Position numbers and translations under genes: made by a program. Under the pieces are notes generated by a model. That model had not been told where the DNA came from, ran no database searches, and saw only the letters and a program-made list of their open reading frames with translations. A DNA stretch of 64,000 bases from a virus (taxonomy: Duplodnaviria > Heunggongvirae > Uroviricota > Caudoviricetes): positions 1 to 64,000 of IMG/VR virus record IMGVR_UViG_3300035661_000015, one strand, 5' to 3'. Below are positions 2,803-44,692 of the stretch, piece by piece. The first letter of the stretch is position 1; every line of letters starts with the position of its first letter.

Positions 2803-2992
2803 AGTTTCTTTACATAAATGTATTAGCGGAAGAATTAAAGGTAGAAGCGACCTTTGTTAATTACAGGGGCAATCTAATGAACTATGAGTTAAAACATAGT
2901 GGATGTAGTAGTTGGGACGGCGAAGATCGGCGTTGCAACTGTGGTAATAGGCGAATTTACTAGTCATATAGCGGCAATTTTAAAAACGGTTC

Positions 2993-3358: not shown

Positions 3359-3558
3359 TGACCAAACTAAAATTCGTTGCAAAGTTTATGAAATATGTTA
3401 CAATTGGATTGTTGGGCATCTGGGGTTTTGCCCAGACCAATCATCTCGTTAACGAGTCTTTAATTCCCCCCTTTGTTGGGGTCGGGCTCTATTTGTTTAT
3501 CGCGTCCTTGTTGATTGTTTTGTTTTTTGAACCTATTTTTAAGGAACTATCAGAATGA
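3352..3558 (+). CDS. Small hydrophobic membrane protein (possible NfeD-like partner of the downstream SPFH protein)
   Basis: Two hydrophobic segments; overlaps the next gene start. Confidence 0.4.
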   Translation: MVMTKLKFVAKFMKYVTIGLLGIWGFAQTNHLVNESLIPPFVGVGLYLFIASLLIVLFFEPIFKELSE

Positions 3559-4451
3559 AAAAGACCCTACTGTTTGCCGCCCTTACCTTTCCTATGTTTT
3601 TCGCCGGTTGTGGCTGTAATACAGTTGAGCCCGGCTATGTGGGTGTTAAAGTGCCCTATTATGGTGATGCTAAAAATCAAGATTATCAACTCGTACGTGG
3701 CGTAGTGTGGTACAACGGATTCACCGAACGTATTTATGAATTCCCCACATTCTTACAAAGTGTTGTGTGGACTAAGGATACTAACGAGGGGTCGCCAACC
3801 GACGAAAGTGTAACTTTTAATTCGGCAGAAGGTGAGGGTGTAAATGTAGATGTAGCATTTAGTTACACCATTCCAGAAGATAAGGTTAGTGATATCTTTA
3901 AGAAACAACGAAAAGAAATTCGCGAATTGACGCATATATTTCTCCGCTCAGAAGTTCGCGATAGTATTGTTCTACATGGTAGTCGATACAAGATTATTCC
4001 TTTGATTGGTCTTGATAAGGAAAAGTTGATTACCGAAGTTAAGGCCGATCTAATTAAAAAGCTTGGACCACAGGGTTATGAAATTAACGCGATTTCATTC
4101 GTGGGTAAGATGCGTGTTGACCCAAAGGTTGAGGCGTCTATTTCGGCCACTATTACACAGTTGAGTAAGACAGTTGAAGCTGAAAATAAAATTAAGCAGA
4201 GTGAGGCAGAGGCCCGCCAATCTGTTGCGGTAGCTAAGGGTAAGGCTGATGCGGAAGTTCAAGAGGCCGAGGGTAAAGCTAAGGCACGTGTAACAATTGC
4301 GGAAGCCGAAGCTAAGGCCAATACCCTTGTACAAAAATCCCTTACCCCCGAAGTATTGGAATTTAATATGCTCAAACAATGGGATGGTAAACTTCCTCAG
4401 GTGATGGGTGGTGGAGTTTCTCCCTTTGTAAATCTCAAGGATCTAAAGTGA
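3555..4451 (+). CDS. SPFH/band-7 (prohibitin/HflK-like) lipoprotein
   Basis: Lipobox FFAGC; C-terminal Ala/Glu/Lys-rich coiled region typical of the SPFH family. Confidence 0.55.
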   Translation: MKKTLLFAALTFPMFFAGCGCNTVEPGYVGVKVPYYGDAKNQDYQLVRGVVWYNGFTERIYEFPTFLQSVVWTKDTNEGSPTDESVTFNSAEGEGVNVDVAFSYTIPEDKVSDIFKKQRKEIRELTHIFLRSEVRDSIVLHGSRYKIIPLIGLDKEKLITEVKADLIKKLGPQGYEINAISFVGKMRVDPKVEASISATITQLSKTVEAENKIKQSEAEARQSVAVAKGKADAEVQEAEGKAKARVTIAEAEAKANTLVQKSLTPEVLEFNMLKQWDGKLPQVMGGGVSPFVNLKDLK

Positions 4452-4467
4452 ACGATAAATATCAACA

Positions 4468-4510
4468 ATAACTCTTTGAGGCCGTTAATAGCGGCCTTGA
4501 GGTTTATTTT
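4468..4510 (+). terminator. Rho-independent terminator
   Basis: GAGGCCG...CGGCCTT stem followed by a T-run. Confidence 0.6.
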
Positions 4511-4648
4511 TTTGATACTATTATTAGTTGAGCCTAGTCAATTCATTACCATTAGTAGAATTTTTGAAGAGTAAAATAGGTGCCGAAGGGATTTTCGTAT
4601 GAAATTTAAGGATATACTACTGTTCTTATTCGGATTCTTTGTTCTATC

Positions 4649-4677
4649 ATTGACTTCGTTTTGGATTTCTGATATAA
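4649..4677 (+). promoter_or_regulatory. Sigma70-like promoter (TTGACT-17-TATAAT)
   Basis: Near-consensus hexamers with 17-nt spacing. Confidence 0.5.
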
Positions 4678-4708
4678 TAGGTGAAATAATACTGGTAAAA
4701 TAAATACT

Positions 4709-4731
4709 AAGCGGAGAAAGTTATAGGGGCT
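4709..4731 (+). repeat. Dispersed motif, forward copy (TAAGCGGAGAAAGTTATAGGGGC) followed by a T-run
   Basis: Matches consensus TAAGCGGAGAAAGT-n-GGGGCG. Confidence 0.8.
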
Positions 4732-4982
4732 TTTTTTTATTAAAATTACATCTGATCTACATGAAAAAACTTTTTCTAAAATAGGGGCGAACGAGGTTCA
4801 TACTTACCCATGTAAGAATTGTCCTTCTAATTTTCCACGTCCCCATAATCCAGAAGCCGAGAGTATTTTAAATTCTAAAGATGATGAGTGGCTAGAGCAT
4901 TCGATATTTTTATACGGATGGAAAAATAATAAATTCTGTAAGGGTAATTACGATCTTATAAAAGTAGAGATAGGGGCTTTAA

Positions 4983-5810
4983 ATGAAAATTGAGGCAGTC
5001 GTTACGTGTGTTAATTACGCGGACTTTTTAACCTATAGTCTTGCTCATAATCGAAATATTTTTGATCATATAGTGGTCGTCACTGATACAAAAGATGTTA
5101 AAACGCAAAATGTGTGTGACTGGTGGAATATTCAGTGCATTCAAACGGATGCGTGGTATGAGGGCGGGGCCATATTTAATAAGGCAAAAGGAATCAATGT
5201 TGGCCTAGCCCAACTCTCGAAATCCGATTGGGTTGTGCATATGGATGCCGATATTATAATGGTCCCTAAAGCCCGTGACGTTATTAGTAGTTTAGATAAG
5301 GTCGATTTTTTTAATAAGGAAAGTCTTTATGGTATTGATAGAACACATTGTAAGACATTTGAAGAGTTTGCTAATTTTCTAGCTAATCCTGATCCGGCCT
5401 ATATACCCGACATCTTTTTAAATCCCGGTCGATTCCCCCTTAATCATCGAATTATTAAGTTAGAGTATGGGGGCTATTTGCCCATTGGATTTTTCCAAAT
5501 GTGGAATCATAAAGGGTGTGGTTTATTTAAGGAAAACGCCCTTATCTATCCAGAAGAACATATCGACGCTGCCCATTCAGATATGTTGTTTTCATTAAAG
5601 TGGTCACGTAAGAAACGCCACTTAATTCCGGATATTATGGGCTTACATATTGAAACTATGGCAGAAAATGGTAAAATGGGAGCTAATTGGATGGGGCGAA
5701 AGACAAAACCCTTTCTTCCGACCCCTCAGACCGAAATTAAAATTAGAGAAATCCCCCAAAACCTAGTTAGTGATGTTTCCCAAGTTTTTTATCCCTACAA
5801 AGGCGTGTGA
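4983..5810 (+). CDS. Putative glycosyltransferase (GT-A-like; DAD motif HMDADII)
   Basis: Weak motif-level similarity only. Confidence 0.4.
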   Translation: MKIEAVVTCVNYADFLTYSLAHNRNIFDHIVVVTDTKDVKTQNVCDWWNIQCIQTDAWYEGGAIFNKAKGINVGLAQLSKSDWVVHMDADIIMVPKARDVISSLDKVDFFNKESLYGIDRTHCKTFEEFANFLANPDPAYIPDIFLNPGRFPLNHRIIKLEYGGYLPIGFFQMWNHKGCGLFKENALIYPEEHIDAAHSDMLFSLKWSRKKRHLIPDIMGLHIETMAENGKMGANWMGRKTKPFLPTPQTEIKIREIPQNLVSDVSQVFYPYKGV

Positions 5811-6199
5811 TGATTATTGATAAGTTGATTGAGATCAGAAATAGCAATATGAAAAATGGAAATCAGGAGCTATTACTTAGTTCCTGTTTTTTAATTGGTC
5901 AAATTGAACGCCTACAAGAGCCCACTGAGAAGAATGTAATTAAAATTCTTGAGGCTATGGTCAATACGCCGGAAGGATATTGGCCCAAAGAAATTGAACT
6001 TGCCCGCTCTTTTATCCCGGTCAAGATGAGCGGAGAAAGTATAGGGGCGGCTCTGGACAATATTAGGAGCGAGTTACGGGCATTTGAGAAAGATGGTCCG
6101 GCGGTTGGCTATGCTATTAAGTATCTTAAGGATTTTGGCGAAGCGGACGGTGACATCATTTCAAAGCTGGTTAGGGCGATTCGGGAGAATAATGACTAA
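5807..6199 (+). CDS. Hypothetical protein (contains a forward copy of the dispersed motif in-frame)
   Basis: ORF track. Confidence 0.4.
   Translation: MMIIDKLIEIRNSNMKNGNQELLLSSCFLIGQIERLQEPTEKNVIKILEAMVNTPEGYWPKEIELARSFIPVKMSGESIGAALDNIRSELRAFEKDGPAVGYAIKYLKDFGEADGDIISKLVRAIRENND
6027..6050 (+). repeat. Dispersed motif, forward copy (in-frame in a CDS)
   Basis: TGAGCGGAGAAAGTATAGGGGCGG. Confidence 0.8.
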
Positions 6200-6317
6200 T
6201 GAAAGTTATAAAGAAGTCTAGAGTTCAAGAATTTACTGACATGGTACATTGTACATATGGTGCAGAATTAGAAATAAGGGGAATCGACCTGGATGTTAAT
6301 TATAAATTTAGAGCCCT

Positions 6318-6354
6318 CGCCCCTCGACGACCAACACTTTAATTTCTCCGCTAA
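6318..6354 (-). repeat. Dispersed motif, reverse copy
   Basis: CGCCCC...TTTAATTTCTCCGCTAA. Confidence 0.7.
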
Positions 6355-6976
6355 TGGGCTCGGACCAAACTCGGAACGGGATTCACCCCAAGCCTCAGAG
6401 TCCCAAGATGACTTTTTCCGCTGTCGCCTTAGATTTGAGTATACTTTTAATTATAGGGCGAGCGGAGTTGATGGGATTTTTCAGTGCTATGCTACAGATC
6501 ATAATGATGCAATTAAACAATTTGGAATTCACCTGGGGGAAAAATGAGTAAACCAAACATTTACGATATTAAACACTCTTATAGATTTATTCTTTTTCCA
6601 CAGAAAATATATGTATCAAAAAATTATGGATTACCCTATCATCGATGGGTTTGGTTGAAGTGGGTTATGTTTAGTTATGAGTATATTAATAGAAATAATA
6701 AATCACAATGGATTCTTATTGATAGGACGGTGATGAATTGAAATTCAATAGACGAGTATTAGGGTCCAAAAAAATAAGGTGGGGATTTTTATTCTTTCCG
6801 AAAGATATTCCTATTTATGAAAACGAAATTTTAGTTGGCTATGAATCCGCTTGGCTTAGACCTATTAAGTATACATATGAATATATGCAATATATGAAAA
6901 AGGAGACTCGTCAATATAGATCATTTTATTCTCAAATGGTTTCGGAGTGGGTTTTAATTAATAGGGAAATATTGTA

Positions 6977-7324
6977 ATGGCTCTTTACACCGACTACCCC
7001 CTCACCGAACTTGGCGATATCCCCTATAAGGAAGCCCCTATTAGGGAACTTGTACTTTTAAAACACGATGGTGGTAAATATTGTGATATTTTGATAGAAG
7101 AGAAGGTTTTTAATATTAAGATTGGCTATATTTACACTAAAGATAAAAATGGAAAAATGGTTTCTATAGCTAACAACGGGTATTATTTTTTCAATACCCA
7201 TTCTCTCCCCTGTACAAAATGTCCGTATTATATTACAATACATCAATCAGAAGAACATGCTACGGGAATTTGTACGAAGTGCGGTCACTCATTCTGTACT
7301 AGGTATACGAAGCCAAAAAGTTAA
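6977..7324 (+). CDS. Cys-rich Zn-ribbon protein
   Basis: CTKCPYY...CTKCGHSFC. Confidence 0.45.
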   Translation: MALYTDYPLTELGDIPYKEAPIRELVLLKHDGGKYCDILIEEKVFNIKIGYIYTKDKNGKMVSIANNGYYFFNTHSLPCTKCPYYITIHQSEEHATGICTKCGHSFCTRYTKPKS

Positions 7325-7410
7325 GTGACCTAGAAAAAGAATAATGATATAGATCTTGCTCAAGAATTTTCCCTTAAAATTAGCGACTAAGAAATTAAAG
7401 AGGTATTAAA

Positions 7411-8586
7411 GTGTCTAAGTTAATTTTTGGCAACCACCAAGAGAATACGTTGACTCAGGTTGATATGGTTATTGACTCGGGGGCCGAACACTTTGTTCTA
7501 TGTGCTGACGGGCACTTGGGTTACGGTCATCCAATCGGCGGAGTCGCCGCTTATAAAAATAAAATTTCCCTTTCGGGTGTTGGTAAAGATATTTCGTGTG
7601 GAAACTTAGCTTCACGGACGACCATGAAAGGCAAAGATTTAGCGGAAAATATAGGGGCGATTATGGATGAAATTGTTGCCAAAATCTCTTGTGGTGTTGG
7701 TCGCAATAATAAGGGGCGTGTCGATTCGCCCGTATTCGATAATCCCCTATTCGCCACCAATGATATTCTCCGCTCACTTTTGCCTATGACTAGAGATCAG
7801 TTTGGAACAATTGGGGCCGGTAATCATTACGTAGACCTTTTTGTTGATGACTCAGATGATTCTGTTTGGATTGGTATTCACTTCGGAAGTAGGGGGCTTG
7901 GATATAAATTTGCTTCCCACTATTTTGATATGGTAAATTATAAGGACGGATATCTTGTAAAGCCCGCCTTATTAGATGCTGACTCTAATGCTGGTCAAGA
8001 ATATTTGGCTGGAATGGAATTGTGTGGAGATTATGCTTACGAGTCAAGGTATTGGGTGGGCCATAAGGTTGCTGAAATTCTTGGGGCAAATATTACTAAA
8101 AGTGTCCACAATCACCATAATTATTGTTGGATAGAAGAACATTTTGGTGAGACCTACTATGTTGTACGTAAAGGGGCAACCCCCGCTTTTCCCGGCCAAC
8201 TTGGTTTTATTGGCGGGTCAATGGGTGATAATGCCGTAATCGTAGAGGGTGTTGAGTCCGAACTATCCAAAAGTACTTTATATAGTACAATTCATGGGGC
8301 CGGTCGTGATTTTAGTCGTGCCGAAGCTAAGGGGCGATACGTCAAAGATGAGAATGGTAAAAAGCAAAGGGGTGTCGGTCGCGTTCGTCACGATGAAATG
8401 CAAAAATGGCTGAATGATAAGGGCGTAGTAGTTCGTGGCGGCGACTTAGACGAGGCCCCACAAGCTTATCGGCGACTTGATGATGTTCTTAAGTTTCACG
8501 AGGGTACAATTAAAATTCTACATACCCTTAGGCCGGTCGGGGTTATGATGGCTGGACCAAATACTTTTGACCCATATAAGGACTAA
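7411..8586 (+). CDS. rtcB: RtcB-family RNA 3'-phosphate/5'-OH ligase
   Basis: CADGH, GSRGLG, NHHNY and IHGAGR motifs characteristic of RtcB. Confidence 0.8.
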   Translation: MSKLIFGNHQENTLTQVDMVIDSGAEHFVLCADGHLGYGHPIGGVAAYKNKISLSGVGKDISCGNLASRTTMKGKDLAENIGAIMDEIVAKISCGVGRNNKGRVDSPVFDNPLFATNDILRSLLPMTRDQFGTIGAGNHYVDLFVDDSDDSVWIGIHFGSRGLGYKFASHYFDMVNYKDGYLVKPALLDADSNAGQEYLAGMELCGDYAYESRYWVGHKVAEILGANITKSVHNHHNYCWIEEHFGETYYVVRKGATPAFPGQLGFIGGSMGDNAVIVEGVESELSKSTLYSTIHGAGRDFSRAEAKGRYVKDENGKKQRGVGRVRHDEMQKWLNDKGVVVRGGDLDEAPQAYRRLDDVLKFHEGTIKILHTLRPVGVMMAGPNTFDPYKD

Positions 8587-9175
8587 TATGTATATTGATT
8601 CGGTTAAATTTAATCACGATTATAGATGTTTTAATGCTGGTGACCAGTTTGAATTTAAGGATCTAACTTTACTAGTTGGTGACCAGGGTTGTGGTAAATC
8701 TTCACTTCTAGATTTATTAGGACGTAATTGTCCTGAGTTAGAGTTAAGTCTTACCGATCTTGGTTTAAGGGGTGTTGAAACATTTTATTTTGATACTGAA
8801 AAAATGAATCCACGAATTGTAGATGCTCAAATGTATACTAATCCTAATGGTACAAATCGTGGTATTGGGATAGGTCGAGCTATATCATCTAGATTTACTT
8901 CTCATGGCGAAACTATTGTTGACTTTACTGTAAATGCACTGAAAACTGCTAAAAATTGTTTATTTTTTTTAGATGAACCCGAGAGTGGATTATCTATTCG
9001 TAACCAATTCCGATTACTAAAAGAGACTAGATCCGCCATTAAAAGAAAATGTCAATTAGTTATTGCAACACACTCTTTATTACTTATTAGTAAAACTAAA
9101 TCTGTGCTTTCACTAGAACATGGTAGATGGATAGATTCAAAAAGTTTTATTAAATCACACGCGGTAGGTTTATGA
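8567..9175 (+). CDS. Small ABC-type/AAA ATPase (Walker A GDQGCGKSS; Walker B FFLDEPESGL; H-loop ATHS)
   Basis: P-loop and ABC signature-like motifs. Confidence 0.6.
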   Translation: MTHIRTNMYIDSVKFNHDYRCFNAGDQFEFKDLTLLVGDQGCGKSSLLDLLGRNCPELELSLTDLGLRGVETFYFDTEKMNPRIVDAQMYTNPNGTNRGIGIGRAISSRFTSHGETIVDFTVNALKTAKNCLFFLDEPESGLSIRNQFRLLKETRSAIKRKCQLVIATHSLLLISKTKSVLSLEHGRWIDSKSFIKSHAVGL

Positions 9176-9684
9176 TATACTTTACCGGATGTTGGCACCT
9201 TGACCATGAGAATATTATAAAATTGACCAATCGCCCTTTTCTTAATATTGAGTCTATGAACAAGGAAATTATTAATAATACGAATGAGATGGTTGGGCCA
9301 AATGATGACCTTTATATTTTAGGCGACACCCTTCTTACTCGGGGACATTATCCGACAAGAATAAATGAGATTATGAATAGCCTTCGGTGTAATAATATTC
9401 ATTATCTTTTGGGAAATCATGATAGACCACTAAGAGATAATAGACGCATGTGCCCCAATAAAATTAGGTCTATAAACGACTATTTAGAATTGAGTTACAA
9501 GAATACAAAGGTTTGCTTATTTCATTATCCGATTTTAGAGTGGAACGCCTGGTTTCATCGGGCGATTCATCTACATAGTCACGTTCACAATAATTTAGAA
9601 AATGCCGAAAGGCGTATGGATGTTGGAGTTGACGCTATGAATTTTGCCCCTATCTCTATTGAAGAGGTATTTGAAATAATATGA
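9172..9684 (+). CDS. Calcineurin-like metallophosphoesterase
   Basis: DHEN, GDTLLTRG and GNHD motifs. Confidence 0.65.
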   Translation: MIYFTGCWHLDHENIIKLTNRPFLNIESMNKEIINNTNEMVGPNDDLYILGDTLLTRGHYPTRINEIMNSLRCNNIHYLLGNHDRPLRDNRRMCPNKIRSINDYLELSYKNTKVCLFHYPILEWNAWFHRAIHLHSHVHNNLENAERRMDVGVDAMNFAPISIEEVFEII

Positions 9685-9726
9685 CTACAACCGATCCGAT
9701 TTATCAAGCTGTAAAGGTTTATTAAA

Positions 9727-10041
9727 ATGAAACAAGATTGTATAGAAGATGTACTTGATAGTATAAGAACTCAAGAGAACGATGAAATTAAAAAAATAAA
9801 AGAGAAGATTGCCATTTTAATTAAGTCCGCCCATTTTCAAGGGCTGACTAGCTTTGTACTTTATTTGCCCTACGAATCTGTTGAGCGATCGTTTGTAGGC
9901 CAAAGGTTTTTTACTTGTAATAATTATAATTATAGCTATATTTTATTGGACCTACATAAAAGAGGCTTTAATCTCAGTGAAATTTTAAAAGATCTAGTCG
10001 GTCATTATTATGTGATGATTGACTATAGTGGAGCCCTATAA
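9727..10041 (+). CDS. Hypothetical protein
   Basis: ORF track. Confidence 0.35.
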   Translation: MKQDCIEDVLDSIRTQENDEIKKIKEKIAILIKSAHFQGLTSFVLYLPYESVERSFVGQRFFTCNNYNYSYILLDLHKRGFNLSEILKDLVGHYYVMIDYSGAL

Positions 10042-10184
10042 TATGATTAACTTTATACTTTTTATATTTGCGTCCTATGGATTAATTTCCTTTATTGTTG
10101 ATACGACGCTTATTGTTTCAGTCATGATAAAGAAAGCTAATCCCCAACGTTTCTATGAATTAGAATTTAAAAAAGATAGACTTC

Positions 10185-10538
10185 ATGGCGAAAACAATCT
10201 TTTGGAGATTTAATATGACAATTTTAGAAGAATGTATTAGTAATATTAAGCAGGCTTTTGTAGTAGAGCCTATGGCCTATGAACTAGAACAAAATATATT
10301 AAAACAGGTGATTTGTTGCTGCAAAGAAAAAAGGACATTCTTTTATTTTTATATTCCTGATAAATATATGGTGACGGACTCTTATAGTTTTAAGTATTCA
10401 CCATGCACCATGTATGCAAATCTTTTTAAAAAAATGAAATATATGGGATTTGATATATCAGATATAGGCTATGGAAAAGACGAATACTTTGCTACAATTA
10501 GCTTTTTTAACATTATAGAAAATCTAAGGTCTAAGTAA
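10185..10538 (+). CDS. Hypothetical protein
   Basis: ORF track. Confidence 0.35.
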   Translation: MAKTIFWRFNMTILEECISNIKQAFVVEPMAYELEQNILKQVICCCKEKRTFFYFYIPDKYMVTDSYSFKYSPCTMYANLFKKMKYMGFDISDIGYGKDEYFATISFFNIIENLRSK

Positions 10539-10548
10539 TACCAATTAA

Positions 10549-10577
10549 AAAAGCCGCCCATAAGGCGGCTTCTTTTG
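10549..10577. terminator. Bidirectional rho-independent terminator between convergent genes
   Basis: AAGCCGCC-cataa-GGCGGCTT followed by CTTTT. Confidence 0.7.
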
Positions 10578-10641
10578 TTAGCGGAGAAATATATGGGGGC
10601 GTTTTCGAGGGGTCGCCCACCCCCTTTACTTTCTCCGCTTA
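10578..10641. repeat. Adjacent forward/reverse motif pair forming a long hairpin between convergent genes
   Basis: TTAGCGGAGAAATATATGGGGGCG ... CGCCCACCCCCTTTACTTTCTCCGCTTA. Confidence 0.8.
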
Positions 10642-11445
10642 TGAACGGGTTGTTGGGGCCGTTGCGGAGTCTAGGGTGAAAGTCTTAACAGCCGTTGTTC
10701 CATCGGCGGCATATAATGTTAGGGTTGTTCCTACTAGAGCCCATTTACCAAACCCCTGTGCTCTTGCGGCGGCTAGGGCACCACCGATAGTTTCTGTATT
10801 GTCTGTCGGGGTAAAAGTTTGGGCTAAATTAATATTCACAGCAGCGGTTACACTTGGGACTGCCCCACTAACGGAAACGGGGGCGGTTACAGAGGCAACG
10901 GCACCACCAGCAAATGTAGATCTCGTACTGATAGCTGCATCAAGATTACTAAGGCTAGTAGCTCTCGCAGAGGTATAACCAATGCCGGAAACACCAACGT
11001 TAATATCGTTTTGAATAGCCGTATGGTCCGCCAAACTTAAGGCGTTGCCAGTAATTGCAACAGTTGAACCAGGAGCCAGAGTTGTTCTCCCGGCAGAATC
11101 AATAGTGGGGAAACCAAATGATGGATTTGTTCCATATAGGGCACCAAAACCATTGGCCGACAAAACCCTAAATTCCTGAAACACAGGAACGAAAAGTCCA
11201 GAATTAAAAATGTCTAAAATGAGTCTCCCGGTCGTATTTGTATCAGTGGTGGATAAAGTGGCTGTATATAGGCCGCTTCCAATTTCTGTAAAAGTTGGTA
11301 AAATATAGTTGGCAGCAACACCATTTTTAGTTAGAATAGATGATGGGGCTACCATACCTAATATGGGAGTTACGCCATCATTAATAGATGTAAACGGACC
11401 AATTCTAATTATAGCCGAGGTCGATACTTGCAGGTCGATAGCCAT
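10639..11445 (-). CDS. Phage structural protein, tail-fibre-like (Gly/Ser/Thr/Ala-rich)
   Basis: Composition and position directly 3' of the tailspike gene. Confidence 0.5.
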   Translation of the reverse strand: MAIDLQVSTSAIIRIGPFTSINDGVTPILGMVAPSSILTKNGVAANYILPTFTEIGSGLYTATLSTTDTNTTGRLILDIFNSGLFVPVFQEFRVLSANGFGALYGTNPSFGFPTIDSAGRTTLAPGSTVAITGNALSLADHTAIQNDINVGVSGIGYTSARATSLSNLDAAISTRSTFAGGAVASVTAPVSVSGAVPSVTAAVNINLAQTFTPTDNTETIGGALAAARAQGFGKWALVGTTLTLYAADGTTAVKTFTLDSATAPTTRS

Positions 11446-13911
11446 TTAAGCAACCTTTCTCGCCCTTCGGCGATCATCAAAAATATTTTTATCTAAATTA
11501 AGTTCAACACGTCTTCTTCTAATTATATTCCAAATTTGCGGAACGATTGACGGATAATATCCGTCTAACGCCCCAGTATCTTGACCATCATGACCAGCTT
11601 TTTTATAAAGTTTATTAGTTGGTCTCCAACCTAACCTAATCTGTGTAATCAGATCTCTAACAATATTTGGATAAGCCACAACATTATTTTTTAGGTAAAC
11701 CGCAAGAGCCTGATAGTCTGCGACGGCACTAACAGCCGTATTTCCATTTGATCCCCAGCCACCTGTTGATGGAATATATTTAGTATAGGCTTTAGATAAA
11801 TCTCTAGTACTATCATAAAATTGCGGATCGGCGTAAATATCTGTAGTTTCCGAAGATGGAGCCGTTGTAAACATAACTATTCTACCAACTGTTCCGCTTG
11901 TAATTGTTCCACCAATAGATGCAACAGTTAAGCTGGTGGCCGAAGAAAGCACTGGGGTGGTCGTCGTAACAATAACGCCATTAAAATTAATTACCGCCCC
12001 GGCATTATTTAGGGCGTTTCCAGGTGTATTTATAGAAATGGTTGTTCCGGACGATACGGTTGAGTTACATGTAATTCCGAACGTATTGCCGAACTTATAA
12101 CCCTTTTTACTTAATGCTGTATTATAATTATAAGTGCCTGTAGATGTAGTTAAATTGTAACCACCATTATATCCGCAATTAGCTGGCAAGACGATATCTG
12201 GTTTATCAATACTTAAACAACCCACTAATAAATTTAAAGTACTAGGAGTGGTAAGACCATAAGATAAATTAGATCTTAAAGAAGCGATTGAACCAGCAGG
12301 TGAAGAACCGCCCAGGTCACCTAAAACGAAAGCCCCCTGAAAACCCGACCCTGTATCAATATTGGCGGTATTATGGTTAAGATATATAGTTGTATTTGCA
12401 TCGGATTTTGTAAAATTAAATACAGATCCACTTGAACCCGGTTTTGCCGGATTTATATTAGGGAGCGATAGGTTATTAATACACCTAATAGTCGTAGCTG
12501 AAACTGTTGCCCAGTTAGTTTCCATATAGTAAAGGGCCGCATTATTTCCGTTATGGTAACTTTGATACACGTTGCCCGAAAAAGCCCCAATATCTCCCGA
12601 TCCGGTACTAAAGGCCCCTGTATGATTCTGTAACTGAATAATATTTGGGTCATTATTAGTAGCGGCGTCAGACAAAATAATATTATCGGTCATCGGCCCC
12701 TGACAAATCATACTAGCACCAGTGTGTTTTATAAAATTATTTGTAAAAGAGGTCCATCGTCCAGCGGCGATTGTACTGTTAACTACTGGAGCTATATTAC
12801 TATCACCAGCCGCACCGTAAGCAAGTATATTTCCAGTAATATTCCAATAGGCAAATCCATTGGCCGAAGTCGCAAGCCTTTTATCTATAGCGTTTCCAGA
12901 AAGAATTCTATTTCCACTTGTATAGCTCGCTCCCCCTTTTAAACTAATAACGTCAGAACCAACACTATTAGTAAAAATATTGCCAGAAATAGTTGCACTA
13001 TGAGTAGCTGTAGGGGCAGTAGTATAAAAAATAGGAGTAGCACAGTTATCAAATGTACAGTTAGTAATATTTAAAGTTGTTTCACCGCCGTACATCGGAA
13101 CAATCCCGGTTGCCGAAGTGTCACCATATTGAAAGTCCGTATAGGTAATATTAACATTTCTCAGCGTAGCTGATTCTGTAAAATATAATTTTGAAGAACT
13201 CGAAGATCCCTTAACGCTAACATGGCTTCCGGAAGTCCCTGCAAAGGTTACATCACTCGCCCTACCTGTAGAATCACTATAAATAACCCATCGGAACGGA
13301 CCTGTACCTGTCGTAGTAATTGCTCCGCCCGGCTCTATATATAAGTCACCAGACTGTAGAACTTTTGCCCCTAATGTTAATGTAGCACCACTCGCAATCC
13401 TTAATGTTGAAACAGGTTTTGAGTTTAGGCCAATTGTTAAATCAAATGTAGCTGACGTGTTTCCGAAAGATTGATTAGTATCAACAGTCAGCGTATGACC
13501 AAATGGAAGGGCCGAAACACCCGAAGCTATAGAACCAGTTAAAGCCGTAACAGGAATAGTTGTATCACCAACACTGGCGGCGGCTGTACTGGTCGTTGTA
13601 ACCGCTCCGAATGTCATACTTGTTCCACTTGGAATTGGTGAAATTAGAGCCGTTATATTTAAAAGTGTAGCACCGGCTGTTTTAGTCGTTCCGGTTGTGG
13701 TAACAGTTGTATAATTAACAACAACCGTATCCAAGTTCGTATGATCCGGAACTCTTCCGTTAGGAACGCCCGACCCAATTACCCACCACGGTCCAGCAAT
13801 CGTAGTATCAGACCAATTACCACTTCTTTGCGTAGTATAAGACGCCCCAAAAACACTCATCCCCAATGTTAAAAATAATGTAAATAAAAGCCCAATCTTA
13901 AAAATTCTCAT
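11446..13911 (-). CDS. Tailspike/tail-fibre protein with right-handed parallel beta-helix (pectate-lyase-like) repeats; N-terminal signal-like segment
   Basis: Repeated NxTxxN/ITNC-type beta-helix rungs; 821 aa. Confidence 0.6.
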   Translation of the reverse strand: MRIFKIGLLFTLFLTLGMSVFGASYTTQRSGNWSDTTIAGPWWVIGSGVPNGRVPDHTNLDTVVVNYTTVTTTGTTKTAGATLLNITALISPIPSGTSMTFGAVTTTSTAAASVGDTTIPVTALTGSIASGVSALPFGHTLTVDTNQSFGNTSATFDLTIGLNSKPVSTLRIASGATLTLGAKVLQSGDLYIEPGGAITTTGTGPFRWVIYSDSTGRASDVTFAGTSGSHVSVKGSSSSSKLYFTESATLRNVNITYTDFQYGDTSATGIVPMYGGETTLNITNCTFDNCATPIFYTTAPTATHSATISGNIFTNSVGSDVISLKGGASYTSGNRILSGNAIDKRLATSANGFAYWNITGNILAYGAAGDSNIAPVVNSTIAAGRWTSFTNNFIKHTGASMICQGPMTDNIILSDAATNNDPNIIQLQNHTGAFSTGSGDIGAFSGNVYQSYHNGNNAALYYMETNWATVSATTIRCINNLSLPNINPAKPGSSGSVFNFTKSDANTTIYLNHNTANIDTGSGFQGAFVLGDLGGSSPAGSIASLRSNLSYGLTTPSTLNLLVGCLSIDKPDIVLPANCGYNGGYNLTTSTGTYNYNTALSKKGYKFGNTFGITCNSTVSSGTTISINTPGNALNNAGAVINFNGVIVTTTTPVLSSATSLTVASIGGTITSGTVGRIVMFTTAPSSETTDIYADPQFYDSTRDLSKAYTKYIPSTGGWGSNGNTAVSAVADYQALAVYLKNNVVAYPNIVRDLITQIRLGWRPTNKLYKKAGHDGQDTGALDGYYPSIVPQIWNIIRRRRVELNLDKNIFDDRRRARKVA

Positions 13912-13920
13912 TCTTCCCCC

Positions 13921-14226
13921 TTATAATTGCGACGAATCTTGAACATTATCATAAAAATTTAGATTAATCAACTTACCACCAAAAATTTGATTGATACCAC
14001 TAATAGTATCCACATGAACTCTGTCGTTTGTTTGAATAGACCCAGTAAAATTAACTAGAACACTTCCGCGTCCATTATTTATTGGCCCTGTCGTTATACT
14101 AAATGCAATGGAGCCAGAATTTATAACGGGCGGTATTACTGGAGCGGAACCACTTGTCCCAAGCCCCTGTGTAATAATATATGTAGAACCGAACCCCTGT
14201 GTTACTAAAGTCATTGTTGACTCCAA
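13921..14226 (-). CDS. Small structural or hypothetical protein
   Basis: ORF track; Gly/Thr/Ser-rich. Confidence 0.4.
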   Translation of the reverse strand: MESTMTLVTQGFGSTYIITQGLGTSGSAPVIPPVINSGSIAFSITTGPINNGRGSVLVNFTGSIQTNDRVHVDTISGINQIFGGKLINLNFYDNVQDSSQL

Positions 14227-14245
14227 TAGATTTATATGCTATAAT
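14217..14245 (+). promoter_or_regulatory. Sigma70-like promoter (TTGACT-17-TATAAT) upstream of the motif-bounded cassette
   Basis: Consensus hexamers. Confidence 0.55.
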
Positions 14246-14273
14246 AGAACGAACTTGTAGTAGTAAATACACT

Positions 14274-14690
14274 GAGCGGAGAAGTATATGGGGGCGACTT
14301 TAGAGAAAAAGATATTGGTCCAAAGTTATTTAATTGCCCCACTTTTAAATACCGGAAGATGCCGCCACTTGTCCTTTTTGACCTATAGGAATAAAATAAT
14401 TAGTATAGGGCGAAACAGTTATTTGAAGACGCATCCTCTTGGTAAGAAATTTAATACGGCGAGTTCAAGCACGCATTCCGAACTTTCCGCAATTATAAAT
14501 TTCCCCCATAGGTCGCTTGACATTAGGGCGGCCACAATGTACAATGTTAGAATAGACAGGTGGGGCAAAGTCGCCCTCTCGGCCCCCTGCCCCTCTTGCC
14601 AGAACTTAATACGGTCGTTTAGAATTAAAAAATGTTTTTATTCTACGCAAACCGGATTCGCCCCATTCGCCCTATAACTTTCTCCGCTAA
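14274..14690 (+). mobile_element. Motif-bounded cassette: forward and reverse copies of the dispersed 25-bp motif flank a 129-aa ORF
   Basis: Forward copy 14274-14297 supplies SD+ATG; reverse copy 14659-14690 supplies the ORF C-terminus/stop. Confidence 0.5.
14288..14677 (+). CDS. Small cytidine/deoxycytidylate-deaminase-like protein (HSELSAI ... PCPSC)
   Basis: H(S)E and PCxxC zinc-binding motifs of the CDA fold; ORF ends are encoded by the repeats. Confidence 0.4.
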   Translation: MGATLEKKILVQSYLIAPLLNTGRCRHLSFLTYRNKIISIGRNSYLKTHPLGKKFNTASSSTHSELSAIINFPHRSLDIRAATMYNVRIDRWGKVALSAPCPSCQNLIRSFRIKKCFYSTQTGFAPFAL

Positions 14691-14736
14691 AGGGGCTTCG
14701 CCCCACACCTCAACATCCTTTAGAAGGAAATTTTAA

Positions 14737-16692
14737 GTGGAAATATTAGAAGAAGAACGTAAGATCGAAACGAATATGCGTAACGCTATTCTCAATATGG
14801 ACATAGATCAAGACTCGGCGATTTTACAGATACTTTTAAGAACTCAGCTTTATAGTGATCCACACGGTTCGGCCATGCGGGAAATTGCCTCGAATTCACG
14901 TGACGCTCATCGTGAGGTTGGTTGTGAAAAACCTATTAGGATTTTCTTTCCCTCGAAAAGTAATCCCCAAATAGTTTTTCAGGATTATGGACCTGGACTT
15001 TCTCCGGAACGTATTAATAATATTTATAAGACTTACTTCGGATCGACTAAACGTGGTTCAAATATACAAACGGGCGGATTTGGTCTAGGAAGTAAAAGCC
15101 CTCTTGCTATCACTGATACTTTTGGAATCGTAACTGTAAATGATGGTGTAAAGTATAATTATTTGGTCTCTGTTGGTGAAAACAATAAGGGCGATATTAT
15201 TCTTCTCGGCGAAGAACTTACCGGAGAAGGTAATGGAACAACTGTGAAGATCCCCATCCAAGAGGATAAGATTCAGTATTGTTCTGATTATATATATAAT
15301 TGTACACGCATGTGGGAACCTCAACCCGAATACATCGGGTACTCTAAGAAAGGGGATGTTCCTAAAGTTACAATAAGTGGAGACGGTTGGGCGATTTACG
15401 AGAAGTATCCCGGCACGTGTATTTTATTGGACGGCATTCCATACAATTGCAATAATAAAGAAATCCTTAATAATTTGCCCCATAGTAACTTTTGCTTTAT
15501 TCTTAAGACGGGCGAAGTAGAGGTATCTCTTTCACGCGAGTCACTTTACTTTTCAGAAAAGACAAATGGCAAATTAAAAAATATTCTTGATGAATTCTCC
15601 CTTATTATCAAAGATAAGATTCAGTCTGAGTTAGACGCCTGTGACGATCTTTTTAAATTACTAAAACGGGTAAATGAATTTGAAAATGGGGCACATGGTT
15701 ATAAAAGTGTCCGAATTGATTATTCATATATGGGAACTCCTCTTAATTTAAATAGTTCGCCCGATTCTATTTCCGTAATAGTATCAGAAAAAGATGGTCA
15801 AAAAAGATGTAGCTACAGTAACCTGGCCTATGACTATAATAGGTACGATCAATTTAAAATTATCCTAATCGATTACGATAAATTAACTTATGAATATCCA
15901 CACACCTATAGACCAAATGAGATTATTAAAATTCAGTCATATATGCCGACCAATGCGACAAAAAATAGAATACGCGGAAAATTATTGAAAGATAATATTG
16001 ATAAACTTATATTACTATCTCCGGAAAGTGGACTTTTTAACTTAATTAAAATATATTTTCCCCAAAATTTCACCTGGATGAAGGACTTTTGTAAGATTTC
16101 TCATAAAGTCCCAAAAACAAAAAGAAAAAATTTAATTCCCGTCTATCCTGGTGGTGGTCACTATGCTTCTAAAATCGATTTAGATGATACGACCATAAAG
16201 TATATTTGGGAAAATAAGTCTAGATATGGTGGACAAAAAGAAATTTATGAAATCGCTAAAACTCTAGGTTATACCTATGTTGAAATTTCAAATAAATTTG
16301 TTCCTAGGATAAGACTTAATCCTAATTTTATTACAGTTGATCAGTTCTATAAAAAAGAACTTGTGGAAAATATCGGGAGGGAAAGACTAGAGAAGATAAT
16401 TCTAAGTATTGATTTTTCTTATAAGCACGATCATAGACTTGCTTTATTGGTAGATGCGAAGTATAATGAATATATAGAATGGAAAAAGAATAATTCCGAT
16501 ATAGAAAAATATTTTCCACTGATTGAATTATATTTCAAAAAAACTAATTGGAATATTGGTTCATCAGCCATAAGGCTAGATTTTTCTAAGTATCCAATGT
16601 TACAATTCATTCTCAAAGAACCTCTCAGTGACGAATCTTTAAAAGCGGTCGAAGAATATATTAAACTCGTAAATAAAGGAAAGAAAAAATGA
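14737..16692 (+). CDS. GHKL-family ATPase (HSP90/MORC/MutL-like Bergerat fold)
   Basis: N-box REIASNSRDA, G1 QDYGPG, G2 GGFGLGSKS. Confidence 0.6.
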   Translation: MEILEEERKIETNMRNAILNMDIDQDSAILQILLRTQLYSDPHGSAMREIASNSRDAHREVGCEKPIRIFFPSKSNPQIVFQDYGPGLSPERINNIYKTYFGSTKRGSNIQTGGFGLGSKSPLAITDTFGIVTVNDGVKYNYLVSVGENNKGDIILLGEELTGEGNGTTVKIPIQEDKIQYCSDYIYNCTRMWEPQPEYIGYSKKGDVPKVTISGDGWAIYEKYPGTCILLDGIPYNCNNKEILNNLPHSNFCFILKTGEVEVSLSRESLYFSEKTNGKLKNILDEFSLIIKDKIQSELDACDDLFKLLKRVNEFENGAHGYKSVRIDYSYMGTPLNLNSSPDSISVIVSEKDGQKRCSYSNLAYDYNRYDQFKIILIDYDKLTYEYPHTYRPNEIIKIQSYMPTNATKNRIRGKLLKDNIDKLILLSPESGLFNLIKIYFPQNFTWMKDFCKISHKVPKTKRKNLIPVYPGGGHYASKIDLDDTTIKYIWENKSRYGGQKEIYEIAKTLGYTYVEISNKFVPRIRLNPNFITVDQFYKKELVENIGRERLEKIILSIDFSYKHDHRLALLVDAKYNEYIEWKKNNSDIEKYFPLIELYFKKTNWNIGSSAIRLDFSKYPMLQFILKEPLSDESLKAVEEYIKLVNKGKKK

Positions 16693-17717
16693 AAATTGTC
16701 GGATGGTACAAGAACAAAAGTACACTAACCCTATCTGTTGAAAATAAAAATATTATTCTCACAGAAGATTCGGACCCCGAGTCAATGTACAACAAGTGTT
16801 ACAATATGATTAAAGAGGGCAAAAATGACGAATTATATAATTTACTAACACTCAATGACAAAAAGGTCAAGATCTATGAGAAAGAAGGTTTTAAGACCAT
16901 TGAGGATATCGTATTTATTAATGATGAACCTCTCCCAACTATTCTCGGTGAACGACTTTTGGAATATGCGGACGCTGGCCTTCCGTGCGAATCGCTAGTC
17001 AACTTTTGGAAACGTGTTAAAAATAATCCCAGTCAAAGTTCGGTCGCCCAACTTTTTGGTTTCCTAGAGGCCAATAGATTTACATTAACTTCGGACGGTT
17101 GTTTTATTGGTTATAAACGTGTTCGGGCCAACTTAAAAGATATTAGAACCGGCACCTTCGACAATTCGCCCGGACAAAAACCTAATATGAAACGTGAAGA
17201 CTGTAATCATAATCCTAAAGAAACCTGTTCTTACGGACTACATGTCGCGTCATGGCATTACTTAACATCTGGACCAGGTGATTATACTGATAGGACTTTA
17301 CCTATTGTTGAATGCAAAGTAGATCCGGCTAATGTTGTATCCGTTCCTACGGACTATGATCAAAGTAAAATGCGTGTTTGTGAATATGAAGTTTTGTCAG
17401 TAAGTCCTGGTGAACCAATTAAAAGGTTGGTCTACGACAAAGATAATTGTAATTTATTCCAAGTATATGATCTAGAAGATGACGAAAAATGTCCCCGGTG
17501 CGGTAGTGGTGATTGGGGTGACTCATATTTATGTGAAGACTGTGAAGAAGAATTGGAAGATAAGTATGGGGACGAGGAAGATGATTTTGAAGACTATGAA
17601 ATTGGTGAAAAAGTAGAAATAGTACCTATGACTGCTCCAGAAGTCCGTAGCATTAAACTTGATACGCCAGTGAGCGGAAAGAGGGGGTGGGGGCTTTTCA
17701 AATGGTTTAAAGGGTAA
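16689..17717 (+). CDS. Hypothetical protein with acidic Cys-containing C-terminus
   Basis: ORF track; translational coupling. Confidence 0.4.
   Translation: MKIVGWYKNKSTLTLSVENKNIILTEDSDPESMYNKCYNMIKEGKNDELYNLLTLNDKKVKIYEKEGFKTIEDIVFINDEPLPTILGERLLEYADAGLPCESLVNFWKRVKNNPSQSSVAQLFGFLEANRFTLTSDGCFIGYKRVRANLKDIRTGTFDNSPGQKPNMKREDCNHNPKETCSYGLHVASWHYLTSGPGDYTDRTLPIVECKVDPANVVSVPTDYDQSKMRVCEYEVLSVSPGEPIKRLVYDKDNCNLFQVYDLEDDEKCPRCGSGDWGDSYLCEDCEEELEDKYGDEEDDFEDYEIGEKVEIVPMTAPEVRSIKLDTPVSGKRGWGLFKWFKG
17671..17694 (+). repeat. Dispersed motif, degenerate forward copy
   Basis: TGAGCGGAAAGAGGGGGTGGGGGC. Confidence 0.5.
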
Positions 17718-17721
17718 TAGA

Positions 17722-17752
17722 GATGGGGGCCGAGAGGCCCCTATTTTTTTTC
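17722..17752. terminator. Bidirectional terminator (GGGGGCCgagaGGCCCC + T-run)
   Basis: Stem-loop plus T8 between convergent genes. Confidence 0.65.
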
Positions 17753-18358
17753 TAGATAATTACAGTACTGGAATGCTCCATATGTCGATAGGCCAACTGT
17801 ACCAGACCCCTGATAACCAGAAACCCAATTATCTATAGTAAAGTTACATATAACGCCCGTCGTATTTAGATTTAGGCATTGTGCATAAATTTTAATTCCA
17901 CTTGAACTTCCGGGGCTAACACCGAGGGTTAATTGAATCATATCCCCAGTTGTGGGAATTTCACTTGCCCCACTTGCTCTTAATACAGACATAGTTCCAG
18001 AGTTAATAGAACCAACACCAAAAATAGCATTGTTAAACCATGTCAAATATCCAAACTGCCCATCTTGCGTTCTCTTAGCGTGCAGAATTGTCATAATATC
18101 ATTATTCCAATACGTATACTGCATTACACCTGTCATATTGATAGCATTACTATTTGTGGGCGAAACTATGCCACCCGTTATAGAGTTTATCCTATCTATG
18201 TATGGGGTCCAAAGTGCCCCACTTATAATTGCCGCCCCACACCCATTGATATCTATATAATTAGAAGAACCGATCGGTCCCGGAATATTAGTTGATCCAG
18301 AACCGCCCGGTATTGTATCTGAGCCCGCAAATGTATCAACGAAAATCTGTGTTGACAT
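17741..18358 (-). CDS. Putative virion or tail-fibre-like protein
   Basis: Gly/Ser/Thr-rich; bracketed by degenerate motif copies at 17671 and 18528. Confidence 0.4.
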   Translation of the reverse strand: MSTQIFVDTFAGSDTIPGGSGSTNIPGPIGSSNYIDINGCGAAIISGALWTPYIDRINSITGGIVSPTNSNAINMTGVMQYTYWNNDIMTILHAKRTQDGQFGYLTWFNNAIFGVGSINSGTMSVLRASGASEIPTTGDMIQLTLGVSPGSSSGIKIYAQCLNLNTTGVICNFTIDNWVSGYQGSGTVGLSTYGAFQYCNYLEKK

Positions 18359-18378
18359 TTTAATCCTCGGAGAAAAAT

Positions 18379-19176
18379 ATGTTTATTGTATTATTAGCTA
18401 TATGCTTAGGTCAAATCCAAGATCAGAGCAAGTATATTATCGAAATTCCCGGCCTATCATTAGTAGAGAAATCAAAGGTGTCAGTCTGGGGGGCCGTAGG
18501 AAGGGCCGATCTGCCCAATCACCCAACCCGCCCCTATAATTTTCCGCTTATCCTTTCTACGAAAGAGAGACTAACTAAATTCCATCTCGGTAATCTCTGC
18601 TATATCACTGTAATTATTAGGGGTAATATGATTATAGTAGAACATCTTGATGATGAGTTTGGGGAATTGTATCCTTTTGAGGGCACTTTTAATTTAGTCG
18701 TAGATGGAAAGACCTATAATTTTAATTTAAAAGAAACCCATATGGCGACTAAAAATCCCGTATTTAATATTAATCCTGAAAATTACGATACCCTTTTCTT
18801 TGTTTCAAAACCCAACTCTATTATCTTAGAGCGTCTTGATAGTATCGGCATTTATGAGGGGGCGATTTATACGGGCCTAGTATCATGTAGGTTAGGAACA
18901 AAAGTCGAAGTTTCATTTTTATACTACTCTGATATTAATAGTGATTTTTCTATTAATTTATCTCAGTTATATTATAAGAAAAATTCAAGCTACGCTTTTA
19001 GTAAAATTTTAATTAAAACAGATAGGGCGGCATGTTGGAAAAGATTTAGAAAAGTTATAACCTTAGACCCGACCTCTATATCTTTCACTATTACTATTAA
19101 AGTAGACGGTTCAGAAAATCGGGTCTGGTTAGATAATCTTTCTTGTAAAATTATCGGTTCGATTGATACCCCATAG
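18379..19176 (+). CDS. Hypothetical protein
   Basis: ORF track. Confidence 0.4.
   Translation: MFIVLLAICLGQIQDQSKYIIEIPGLSLVEKSKVSVWGAVGRADLPNHPTRPYNFPLILSTKERLTKFHLGNLCYITVIIRGNMIIVEHLDDEFGELYPFEGTFNLVVDGKTYNFNLKETHMATKNPVFNINPENYDTLFFVSKPNSIILERLDSIGIYEGAIYTGLVSCRLGTKVEVSFLYYSDINSDFSINLSQLYYKKNSSYAFSKILIKTDRAACWKRFRKVITLDPTSISFTITIKVDGSENRVWLDNLSCKIIGSIDTP
18528..18550 (-). repeat. Dispersed motif, degenerate reverse copy
   Basis: CCGCCCCTATAATTTTCCGCTTA. Confidence 0.5.
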
Positions 19177-19177
19177 A

Positions 19178-19576
19178 TTAAGGTTTGGAAATCGGTAATA
19201 GGTTTGGGGTTAAAATATTCTTTCTGTTAAATACGCCGGTCTGACCAACGCCATTAGTTGTATGGGTCTTTCCATACTTGGCACTTTCGTAGATCGGCCT
19301 AATAACCTGTGCTTCATCGCCCACATTAACTGTTCCGCTAACCGTGGCAAAAGAATTAATTACATAGCCCGGTTGACTAAGAAATTGTTGTGGTATAACC
19401 GCATAAAACGTAGTCCCTATTCCGAGTGGCTGTAAAGTCGCTCCGGAATTTAGGGGCGTGTCCCCATTTAAACTATGATAAACAGCAACCCCACTCCCAC
19501 CACCACCCGAAATAGTAAAATAAATTTTTCTCTTATTCGGGTCGGCCTCATTCACAAACATCTGTATAGTGCCCAT
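19178..19576 (-). CDS. Hypothetical (structural?) protein
   Basis: ORF track. Confidence 0.4.
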   Translation of the reverse strand: MGTIQMFVNEADPNKRKIYFTISGGGGSGVAVYHSLNGDTPLNSGATLQPLGIGTTFYAVIPQQFLSQPGYVINSFATVSGTVNVGDEAQVIRPIYESAKYGKTHTTNGVGQTGVFNRKNILTPNLLPISKP

Positions 19577-19577
19577 C

Positions 19578-19949
19578 TTATATCTCCGATACTTTTTTAA
19601 GGTTTAAGCAGTCAAAACATTCACTGTAAGAAACATATCTTTTATTTGGATCTTCACCTACGACCATAGATCCTTTTCCTCGCTTACATTCGTTAAGTCC
19701 CCCGCATCCACAAGAAACCTTGTCGCCCCTATCTGGACAAGACTCTACTGCAATCTTATTAGTATTTAAAAGTTTTGTGACTTTGGAGTCGCCCCCAAAC
19801 CTCACAACGCTAGATTCTATAATAACACCCTTCCACTCTTCGGGAGATTCCTCCATTTTCTCACAAATCCTTTTTATATCTTCTCCTAAACATTTACTTT
19901 TATTTAATGGACAGTTTTTACATTTCATCCCATCACCGTAACTTGGCAC
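19578..19949 (-). CDS. Cys-rich small protein
   Basis: Eleven Cys in 123 aa. Confidence 0.4.
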   Translation of the reverse strand: MPSYGDGMKCKNCPLNKSKCLGEDIKRICEKMEESPEEWKGVIIESSVVRFGGDSKVTKLLNTNKIAVESCPDRGDKVSCGCGGLNECKRGKGSMVVGEDPNKRYVSYSECFDCLNLKKVSEI

Positions 19950-37979: not shown

Positions 37980-38004
37980 TTTTAATTAAAATTATGGACC
38001 ACTT

Positions 38005-44535: not shown

Positions 44536-44692
44536 TCTTTAGTTATTGTCGCTTACATGGATAGTTTAGGCAATGAATAAAGAACGGTAAATTAAACATG
44601 ATGTTGCTGGACGGGAACATTGTATCTAAAATTTAATTTACTTACCCCGTCCATTAACTTTCTTGTCGGTGGTTCGATTCCCTCACTTATCT

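Follow-up and report, generated by a model that had tools for sequence, protein, structure and literature searches.

The closest described relatives of the gene analyzed here are two small phage enzymes, the cyanophage S-TIM5 deoxycytidine monophosphate (dCMP) deaminase (4p9c/4p9e, 138 amino acids (aa)) and T4 Cd (1vq2). Both are zinc enzymes with the cytidine deaminase (CDA) fold and the HxE and PCxxC motifs, and both come from a comparable setting with thymidylate synthase and ribonucleotide reductase (RNR). The DNA around the gene also calls for comparison with known repeat classes. Miniature inverted-repeat transposable elements (MITEs) are insertions with target duplications, and there are palindromic elements that lie in frame within genes, such as the Rickettsia palindromic elements (RPEs). 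The promoter-early stem-loops (PeSLs) of T4-type phages are intergenic units of promoter plus terminator, and their recombination yields deletions and mini-circles (PMC2839356, PMC4122927). The start-associated sequences (SAS) and extended SAS (ESAS) of cluster K mycobacteriophages lie 3–7 bp ahead of start codons, nearly all in one orientation (PMC3203893). Here we analyze a 129-aa open reading frame (ORF) in a 64-kb stretch of tailed-phage DNA (IMG/VR record IMGVR_UViG_3300035661_000015, positions 1–64,000; the window) together with the short motif whose two copies bracket it. An initial annotation had read this ORF as a deaminase carried on a self-contained, inserted or mobile cassette. The sequence and structure model identify the gene as a real zinc deaminase of the cytidine/dCMP-deaminase superfamily. 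The cassette does not survive, because the motif occurs throughout the genome and inside genes, no target-site duplication accompanies it, and homologs of the deaminase exist without it. The best explanation is that the deaminase gene is resident and non-mobile.

The PF00383 (dCMP_cyt_deam_1) profile matches residues 34–119 of the 129-aa protein with 28.7 bits against a cutoff of 25, and PHROG 174, 'dCMP deaminase', matches at 2e-10. With a threshold of E ≤ 1e-3, an exhaustive HMMER search identified 1,904 homologous cluster representatives, of which 216 pass E ≤ 1e-10. The top homologs listed are mostly 125–135 aa long, the best is 51% identical, and PF00383 is present in all of those listed. 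In a 42-sequence alignment, H27, G41, N43, H63, E65, R88, P100, C101, and C104 are invariant, and N86 is nearly so. The amino terminus, MGATLEKK, aligns with M-TRLEKK of the relatives, and the protein has the normal length for the family. The family profile finds the S-TIM5 dCMP deaminase 4p9c at 6e-7, followed by the T4, human, and S. mutans dCMP deaminases; the protein itself also matches T4 Cd directly, though weakly. An AlphaFold model built with the 42-sequence alignment (pLDDT 90.6, pTM 0.86) contains the alpha-beta-alpha sandwich and the two motif helices of the CDA superfamily. The initial annotation had named a missing CDA-fold prediction or an ORF not conserved in relatives as grounds for dropping its reading; we checked both, and the fold is predicted and the ORF is conserved. 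The two zinc-site motifs are where they had been placed, HSE at residues 63–65 (14474–14482) and PCPSC at residues 100–104 (14585–14599), although H63 and C101 are 38 residues apart rather than the roughly 37 claimed. The assignment is not new, since an identical protein in public data carries the JGI name 'deoxycytidylate deaminase' and is thus already annotated as a dCMP deaminase. Members of the family in cultured phages are labeled 'hypothetical protein' or 'dCMP deaminase' and come from Caulobacter Cr30, Aeromonas phages, Atu_ph07, and, weakly, phiKZ-like phages.

By sequence profile, the S-TIM5 and T4 enzymes match best, and they also figure among the top matches by fold, but they differ from the 129-aa protein in several respects. 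Identity is 16–27% and the TM-score is about 0.6. The 129-aa family has a 10-residue insert before PCxxC and its own conserved H27, N86, and R88, and the protein appears to lack a recognizable allosteric-site segment. Its size class (120–135 aa) and predicted C-terminal beta-hairpin are shared with the tetrameric CDAs and blasticidin-S deaminase. Blasticidin-S deaminase is the top Foldseek match to the model and CDAs are next; the top PDB matches, which also include the S-TIM5 enzyme and other dCMP deaminases, have TM-scores of 0.57–0.64. Same-size unnamed viral proteins in BFVD reach 0.80–0.84. The first zinc ligand of the 129-aa protein is His, however, whereas it is Cys in the CDAs and blasticidin-S deaminase; the PCGxCRQ motif is absent, identity is 9–16%, and the profiles favor dCMP deaminases.

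The features of the locus are as follows.
14217–14245, plus strand: sigma-70-type promoter-like site identified by consensus match, TTGACT-17 nt-TGcTATAAT, with an extended −10
14273–14297, plus strand: forward copy of the dispersed motif, T-N-AGCGGAGAA-GTAT-ATG-GGGGCGA, which includes the Shine-Dalgarno (SD) sequence, the start codon, and codons 2–3
14288–14677, plus strand: ORF of the 129-aa CDA-fold zinc deaminase, MGAT...FAPFAL-stop
14659–14690, minus strand: reverse copy of the dispersed motif, core TTCTCCGCT at 14680–14688; the plus strand reads F-A-P-F-A-L and the TAA stop
14692–14704, plus strand: GGGGC-TTC-GCCCC stem-loop, 3 nt outside the reverse motif, without a T-run
14737–17717, plus strand: rIIA (14737–16692) and then rIIB (16689–17717), the next genes in the same direction and context outside any cassette

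The promoter, the start signals supplied by the forward motif, and the ORF whose FAPFAL end comes from the reverse motif are all present as first described. The promoter boxes are TTGACT at 14217–14222 and TATAAT at 14240–14245, separated by a 17-nt spacer, with TG at 14237–14238. The site matches 11 of 12 positions and is the top plus-strand match in 10–19 kb; plus-strand matches of at least 11/12 number 11 in the whole window, this one included. It marks the turning point from minus-strand virion genes to plus-strand genes, and the start codon of the divergent minus-strand gene (13921–14214) is 3 nt from the −35 box. The forward core occupies 14275–14283 and contains the GGAG of the SD (14278–14281), six bases ahead of the ATG at 14288. 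The reverse arm reaches back across TAA and the six codons before it. The hairpin expected after the ORF exists, but it has no T-run and was not called as a terminator, and no terminator was called 3′ of the deaminase ORF. The gene described as a downstream GHKL ATPase is there too, and it is rIIA, followed by rIIB. The nearest rIIA in the protein collection is 38% identical. The promoter plausibly serves the whole rightward unit, because no T-run follows the hairpin and the start of rIIA is 59 nt 3′ of the deaminase stop. From this arrangement we infer that the deaminase is transcribed from the 14217–14245 promoter as the first gene of a unit that continues into rIIA and rIIB, with read-through into both genes being likely. 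Two short, independent contigs, L002 (JGI) and L003 (Logan), end at the same base, window position 14812, which is 124 nt past the reverse motif.

The window also encodes ThyA (34600–35463), DHFR (35460–36023), and NrdB and NrdA (46641–51304), as well as NUDIX, NAMPT, UvsX, RtcB, and a Ro-like protein. A second deaminase gene lies among them.
42378–42923, plus strand: canonical-type dCMP deaminase paralog, 181 aa, with H94-A-D96 for HAE and PC122xxC125 kept
The paralog scores 43.6 bits in Pfam and matches human DCTD at 5e-13, and BLASTP detected no similarity between the 129-aa and 181-aa deaminases. Its HAD contrasts with the HAE of the solved dCMP deaminases that were matched, and on sequence grounds the paralog may be impaired or changed in its chemistry. 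There are two possibilities: the competent dCMP deaminase is the small protein, the paralog having drifted, or the two enzymes have separate jobs.

The best reading of the sequence is an early pyrimidine deaminase acting on dCMP or deoxycytidine (dC). We consider it probable that the gene is a resident early-region gene of an uncultivated large phage, that its product is a small zinc deaminase converting dCMP or dC to dUMP or dU, and that it is expressed from the 14217–14245 promoter together with rIIA and rIIB. The genome encodes rIIA/rIIB, RNR, ThyA, DHFR, UvsX, and RtcB. The product would be a 129-residue zinc-dependent hydrolytic deaminase belonging to a large family of uncharacterized 125–135-aa phage proteins. 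The zinc would be held by H63, C101, and C104, with E65 as the proton shuttle, and a cytosine nucleotide or nucleoside would be the substrate, so that dUMP or dU would feed the phage thymidylate synthase and DHFR. The proposed dCMP/dC role is strengthened because the canonical-type paralog has Asp for the catalytic Glu. The two bracketing repeats are copies of a genome-wide motif and not transposon ends. In the mRNA, base pairing between the arms (about −30 kcal/mol) could hide the SD, AUG, and stop, and this may adjust how well the message is translated or how stable it is.

The motif is not special to the deaminase locus. The exact core AGCGGAGAA occurs 31 times in the window compared to 0.32 expected, 16 times forward and 15 times in reverse. 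About eight AGCGGAAAA variants exist besides the exact cores, giving a total of about 31–40 copies.
Exact cores, first half: 3940, 4710, 6029, 6344, 7766, 10580, 10631, 14275, 14680, 21057, 22250, 22371, 24119, 29441, 30449, 31222
Exact cores, second half: 31701, 36654, 38040, 38127, 39974, 40773, 43031, 43395, 45663, 46161, 52914, 53018, 55757, 57782, 59041
The consensus is T-N-AGCGGAGAAA followed by 3–7 A/T-rich bases and GGGGCG, and none of the 31 copies deviates in the 9-mer core or the T at −2. Neighboring copies within 1.5 kb are convergent in 11 cases, divergent in 2, and in the same orientation in 5 (P about 1e-4). There are 12 convergent pairs, with arms 50–1,400 bp apart. The arms that flank the deaminase match at 79% across 19 nt and can be extended to a 21-bp duplex. 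Some pairs are 50–130-bp hairpins (10580–10639, 38000–38048, and 52914–53026). tblastn with ORFs 52703–53245 and 22041–22616, which have short motif pairs inside them, found no homologs. Twenty of the 31 cores are intragenic, in all three frames, and all are in plus-strand early or metabolic genes; the minus-strand virion genes of the window contain none. Outer GC-containing hairpins lie within 35 nt of 6 of the 31 copies compared to 2.5% of random positions, and triloop hairpins 2–3 nt outside the core accompany 4 of the 31, the deaminase locus included.

The promoter, leader, and motif at 14217–14283 have a near-copy at 4650–4718, where a promoter (4650–4678) and a leader are followed by a forward motif at 4710. 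Both have TTGACT-17-TGnTATAAT, a leader of about 30 nt ending in TAAATAC(A)CT, and then the motif, and they are a repeated module. After the motif at 4710 comes GGGGCTTTTTTTT, and there is no ORF over about 270 nt. These two are the only motif copies preceded by a matching promoter. Called starts follow 4 of the 16 forward copies, and GGAGAA is the usual SD of this phage.

A mobile cassette would have entered as one unit between the virion block and rIIA and would consist of the promoter, a terminal inverted repeat (TIR) with the SD and ATG, the deaminase, a second TIR with the stop, and a terminator. The two motif copies do bracket the ORF exactly and in inverted orientation, as TIRs would, and they do so more neatly than any pair except 36654/38040. 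The GC content of the ORF is 42.8% compared to 38.3% for the window and 33.7% for rIIA, and selfish elements, namely inteins and HNH genes, are abundant in the genome. The slot ahead of rIIA also varies: a distant relative, L256, has six different small genes between the virion block and rIIA, which makes gene turnover at this slot over long times likely. Nevertheless, we judge the cassette very improbable. Motif copies lie inside the RtcB, NUDIX, and Band_7 genes. The forward copy in RtcB encodes LAENIGAI and aligns residue for residue with P. horikoshii RtcB, and between the motif arms the phage protein is shorter, not longer, than that homolog. The reverse copy in the NUDIX gene encodes LSPL within the domain and is colinear with 3gwy, and the Band_7 copy is in mid-domain. 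The RtcB and NUDIX stretches thus align without an insertion. Whole genes are enclosed by only 2–3 of the 12 pairs, which usually ignore gene borders. A target-site duplication was not found at the deaminase locus, where CTG on the left faces AAA on the right, and the variable flanking base agrees in 4 of the 12 pairs compared to about 3.7 expected. Arms within a pair are no more alike than arms across pairs (p = 0.77). Homologs with 43% (L005) and 51% (L008) identity lack the motif, the arms overlie the end codons of a protein of normal family length, and the hairpin that should end the unit has no T-run. Four contigs from other samples (L001–L004) are base-identical to the window and provide no presence/absence variant; close relatives were not found by DNA match in INPHARED or by protein patterns in IMG/VR. 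The copies were therefore rejected as transposon ends, with no target-site duplications and with native sequence between and under the arms. They resemble MITEs and RPEs as short inverted-repeat units, some of them short hairpins and some in ORFs with the frame intact. They differ in lacking target duplications, in the spacing of their arms, which reaches 1.4 kb and consists of native gene sequence, and in lying in RtcB and NUDIX stretches that show no insertion relative to homologs. TIRs are thus present, but the target-site duplication and the insertion or presence/absence polymorphism of a TIR element or MITE were not found.

The same arms could instead act in the RNA, and this second rival can coexist with the resident dCMP/dC deaminase that we prefer. 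The message would form a 5′–3′ 'panhandle' in which the downstream anti-SD arm UUUCUCCGCU occludes the SD and AUG, and RNase III might act on this structure. As a cis-acting switch, the panhandle would control how long the deaminase mRNA lasts or how well it is translated. The 21-bp arm duplex has a predicted stability of −29.8 kcal/mol, and the minimum free energy and centroid folds of the predicted transcript 14252–14712 both hold the long-range arm stem, which closes the entire ORF. All 12 convergent pairs can form duplexes of 17–26 bp (−22 to −40 kcal/mol), the hairpins predicted for the short pairs have z-scores of −2.1 to −3.8, and the 11/2/5 split in orientation is strongly non-random. 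However, covariation between the arms of a pair was not found, and the sense strand is not more stable than the antisense strand (it is better in 4 of 12). Most pairs lie in coding sequence, where ribosomes would melt them, and pairing alone does not require an invariant core and T at −2. The strict invariance therefore points to a sequence-specific factor, most simply one acting on double-stranded DNA, and such a factor is at least as likely as a role in pairing only. We regard the RNA switch as doubtful. The remaining rival concerns the substrate. The deaminase might act on a polymer or special substrate (tRNA, mRNA, phage or host DNA, a modified cytosine nucleotide, or a defense nucleotide signal) and serve early takeover or counter-defense beside rIIA/rIIB. 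A canonical-type dCMP deaminase gene is already present in this phage, the family has its own invariant residues as well as a 10-residue insert that is absent from T4 Cd and the S-TIM5 enzyme, and homologs in three unrelated phages lie among small early ORFs, no more than a few kb from rIIA-like genes. This is an unlikely alternative, as the sequence-profile matches are all dCMP deaminases, PADLOC defense models did not match the 129-aa protein, 129 residues leave no extra nucleic-acid-binding domain, and the HAD in the paralog could make the small protein the working dCMP deaminase. Several points nonetheless weigh against a resident dCMP/dC deaminase expressed from the 14217–14245 promoter. 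The neat bracketing and the variable slot are two of them. Stenotrophomonas phage RAS14 carries one family member and one canonical dCMP deaminase, so the two types may not be redundant. No NCBIfam equivalog matches the 129-aa protein, and 1 of 42 family members touches ComEB at 0.0056. The model ends with beta4 (115–119) and beta5 (124–127) separated by four residues and no helix, and the protein stops at 129. The canonical dCMP deaminases, including the S-TIM5 and T4 enzymes, have helix 4 between beta4 and beta5 in place of this hairpin, a comparison of general folds and not a superposition. Finally, a second promoter-like site (14517–14545, 11/12) within the deaminase ORF could be a separate rIIA promoter.

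The motif was also compared with the other repeat classes. It resembles PeSLs as a repeated short regulatory module in the early or hyperplastic regions of large myoviruses; the modules at 14217 and 4650–4718 join a strong sigma-70-type promoter to a conserved leader and motif, and a stem-loop follows the deaminase. In contrast to PeSLs, most copies are promoterless, two-thirds (20/31) are intragenic, half are inverted, the pairs are convergent, and the hairpin has no T-run. The class was rejected because the copies are not intergenic units of promoter and terminator. The motif resembles SAS as an asymmetric repeat of the 13-bp class that contains an SD, is found only in non-structural genes, and is conserved past the region of rRNA pairing. 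It differs in that 4/16 forward copies serve a called start and 15/31 copies are reversed; neither the position nor the single orientation of SAS was found, and this class was rejected as well. On the same 4/16, a general role as a start-associated or 'super-SD' element was rejected. A promoter function was rejected because no −10 or −35 is conserved at a fixed distance. We also considered an N4-type hairpin promoter and a Chi-like site. Only 4–6 of the 31 copies have the outer hairpin of the former. AGCGG is the Chi of B. subtilis, and a 5-mer Chi cannot account for more than 12 conserved bases.

The motif was also sought beyond the window. IMG/VR gave 3 chance matches, and the matches listed from a metagenome scan were single chance matches and one unrelated tandem repeat. 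Rfam had nothing at the motif at the gathering or E-value threshold, and a literature search for the motif string returned unrelated primer matches only. A scan of bacterial genomes (L136–L255) identified long hairpins with purine-rich arms that contain AGCGGAGAAA, present in multiple copies in the manner of repetitive extragenic palindromes. They occur in Larkinella, Chitinophagaceae, metagenome-assembled genomes of Bacteroidota, Acidobacteria (Terriglobus), and Defluviicoccus, far above a rough chance estimate of about 17 matches. None of these bacterial hairpins has the phage-type T at −2 or the GTA or GGGGCG extension, so they did not point to a host, and Rfam at their loci gave only generic hairpin matches to miRNA models.

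The phage with the 43% identical deaminase homolog, L005, has repeats of its own. These are a TTGGCACG...CGTGCCAA hairpin in 6 copies, a 'ttttctgtcattct...CATGATTAA' start module in 7 copies, and the palindrome TTGGGGAATATTCCCCAA in 3 copies (13237–19701 and 705–18313). Repeated start-region modules look common in the early regions of such phages, because L005 has its own, different set. Elsewhere in the window, NrdA (915 aa) contains an intein with a LAGLIDADG domain (46641–51304 region, plus strand), and an insert of about 340 aa in NrdB (638 aa) looks like a second intein. Two free-standing HNH genes lie at 46294–46644 and 53690–54253, one of them directly upstream of nrdB. The plus-strand genes at 100–849, 849–1514, and 1514–2320 are consecutive and contain long 9-nt tandem arrays of CCGCCGATG with 22–37 copies each, which would give Met-Pro-Pro-type repeats if they are in the gene frame. 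An RNA-repair-like set (7411–8586; 26058–26438; 26721–28409) comprises RtcB, a Ro60-like DUF2828 protein, and an adjoining tRNA-like/tmRNA-like cluster, and a separate tRNA cluster is at 44464–44922.

A deaminase on a small mobile cassette would have been notable, and this interpretation is unsupported. The gene is one more member of a large family of phage deaminases of about 128 residues, found in phiKZ-like phages, Aeromonas phages, Caulobacter Cr30, and jumbo phages and mostly annotated as 'hypothetical'. What it adds is a small deaminase paired in one phage with a canonical-type paralog in which Glu is replaced by Asp, which raises the question of which one supplies dUMP. The dispersed convergent motif is a more unusual feature than the deaminase and lies mostly outside its coordinates. 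As a tentative proposal, the motif could be an undescribed phage cis-element at which a sequence-specific factor acts on convergent pairs that enclose 50–1,400 bp of early-region DNA or RNA in any coding frame. The deaminase locus would then show it in its cleanest form, since one copy there doubles as the SD and start and the other as the stop, and the small deaminase could also have a role different from deaminating the dCMP pool. The genome-wide convergent motif departs strongly from chance, occupies coding sequence although it is not an insertion there, and falls outside the PeSL, SAS, and MITE classes.

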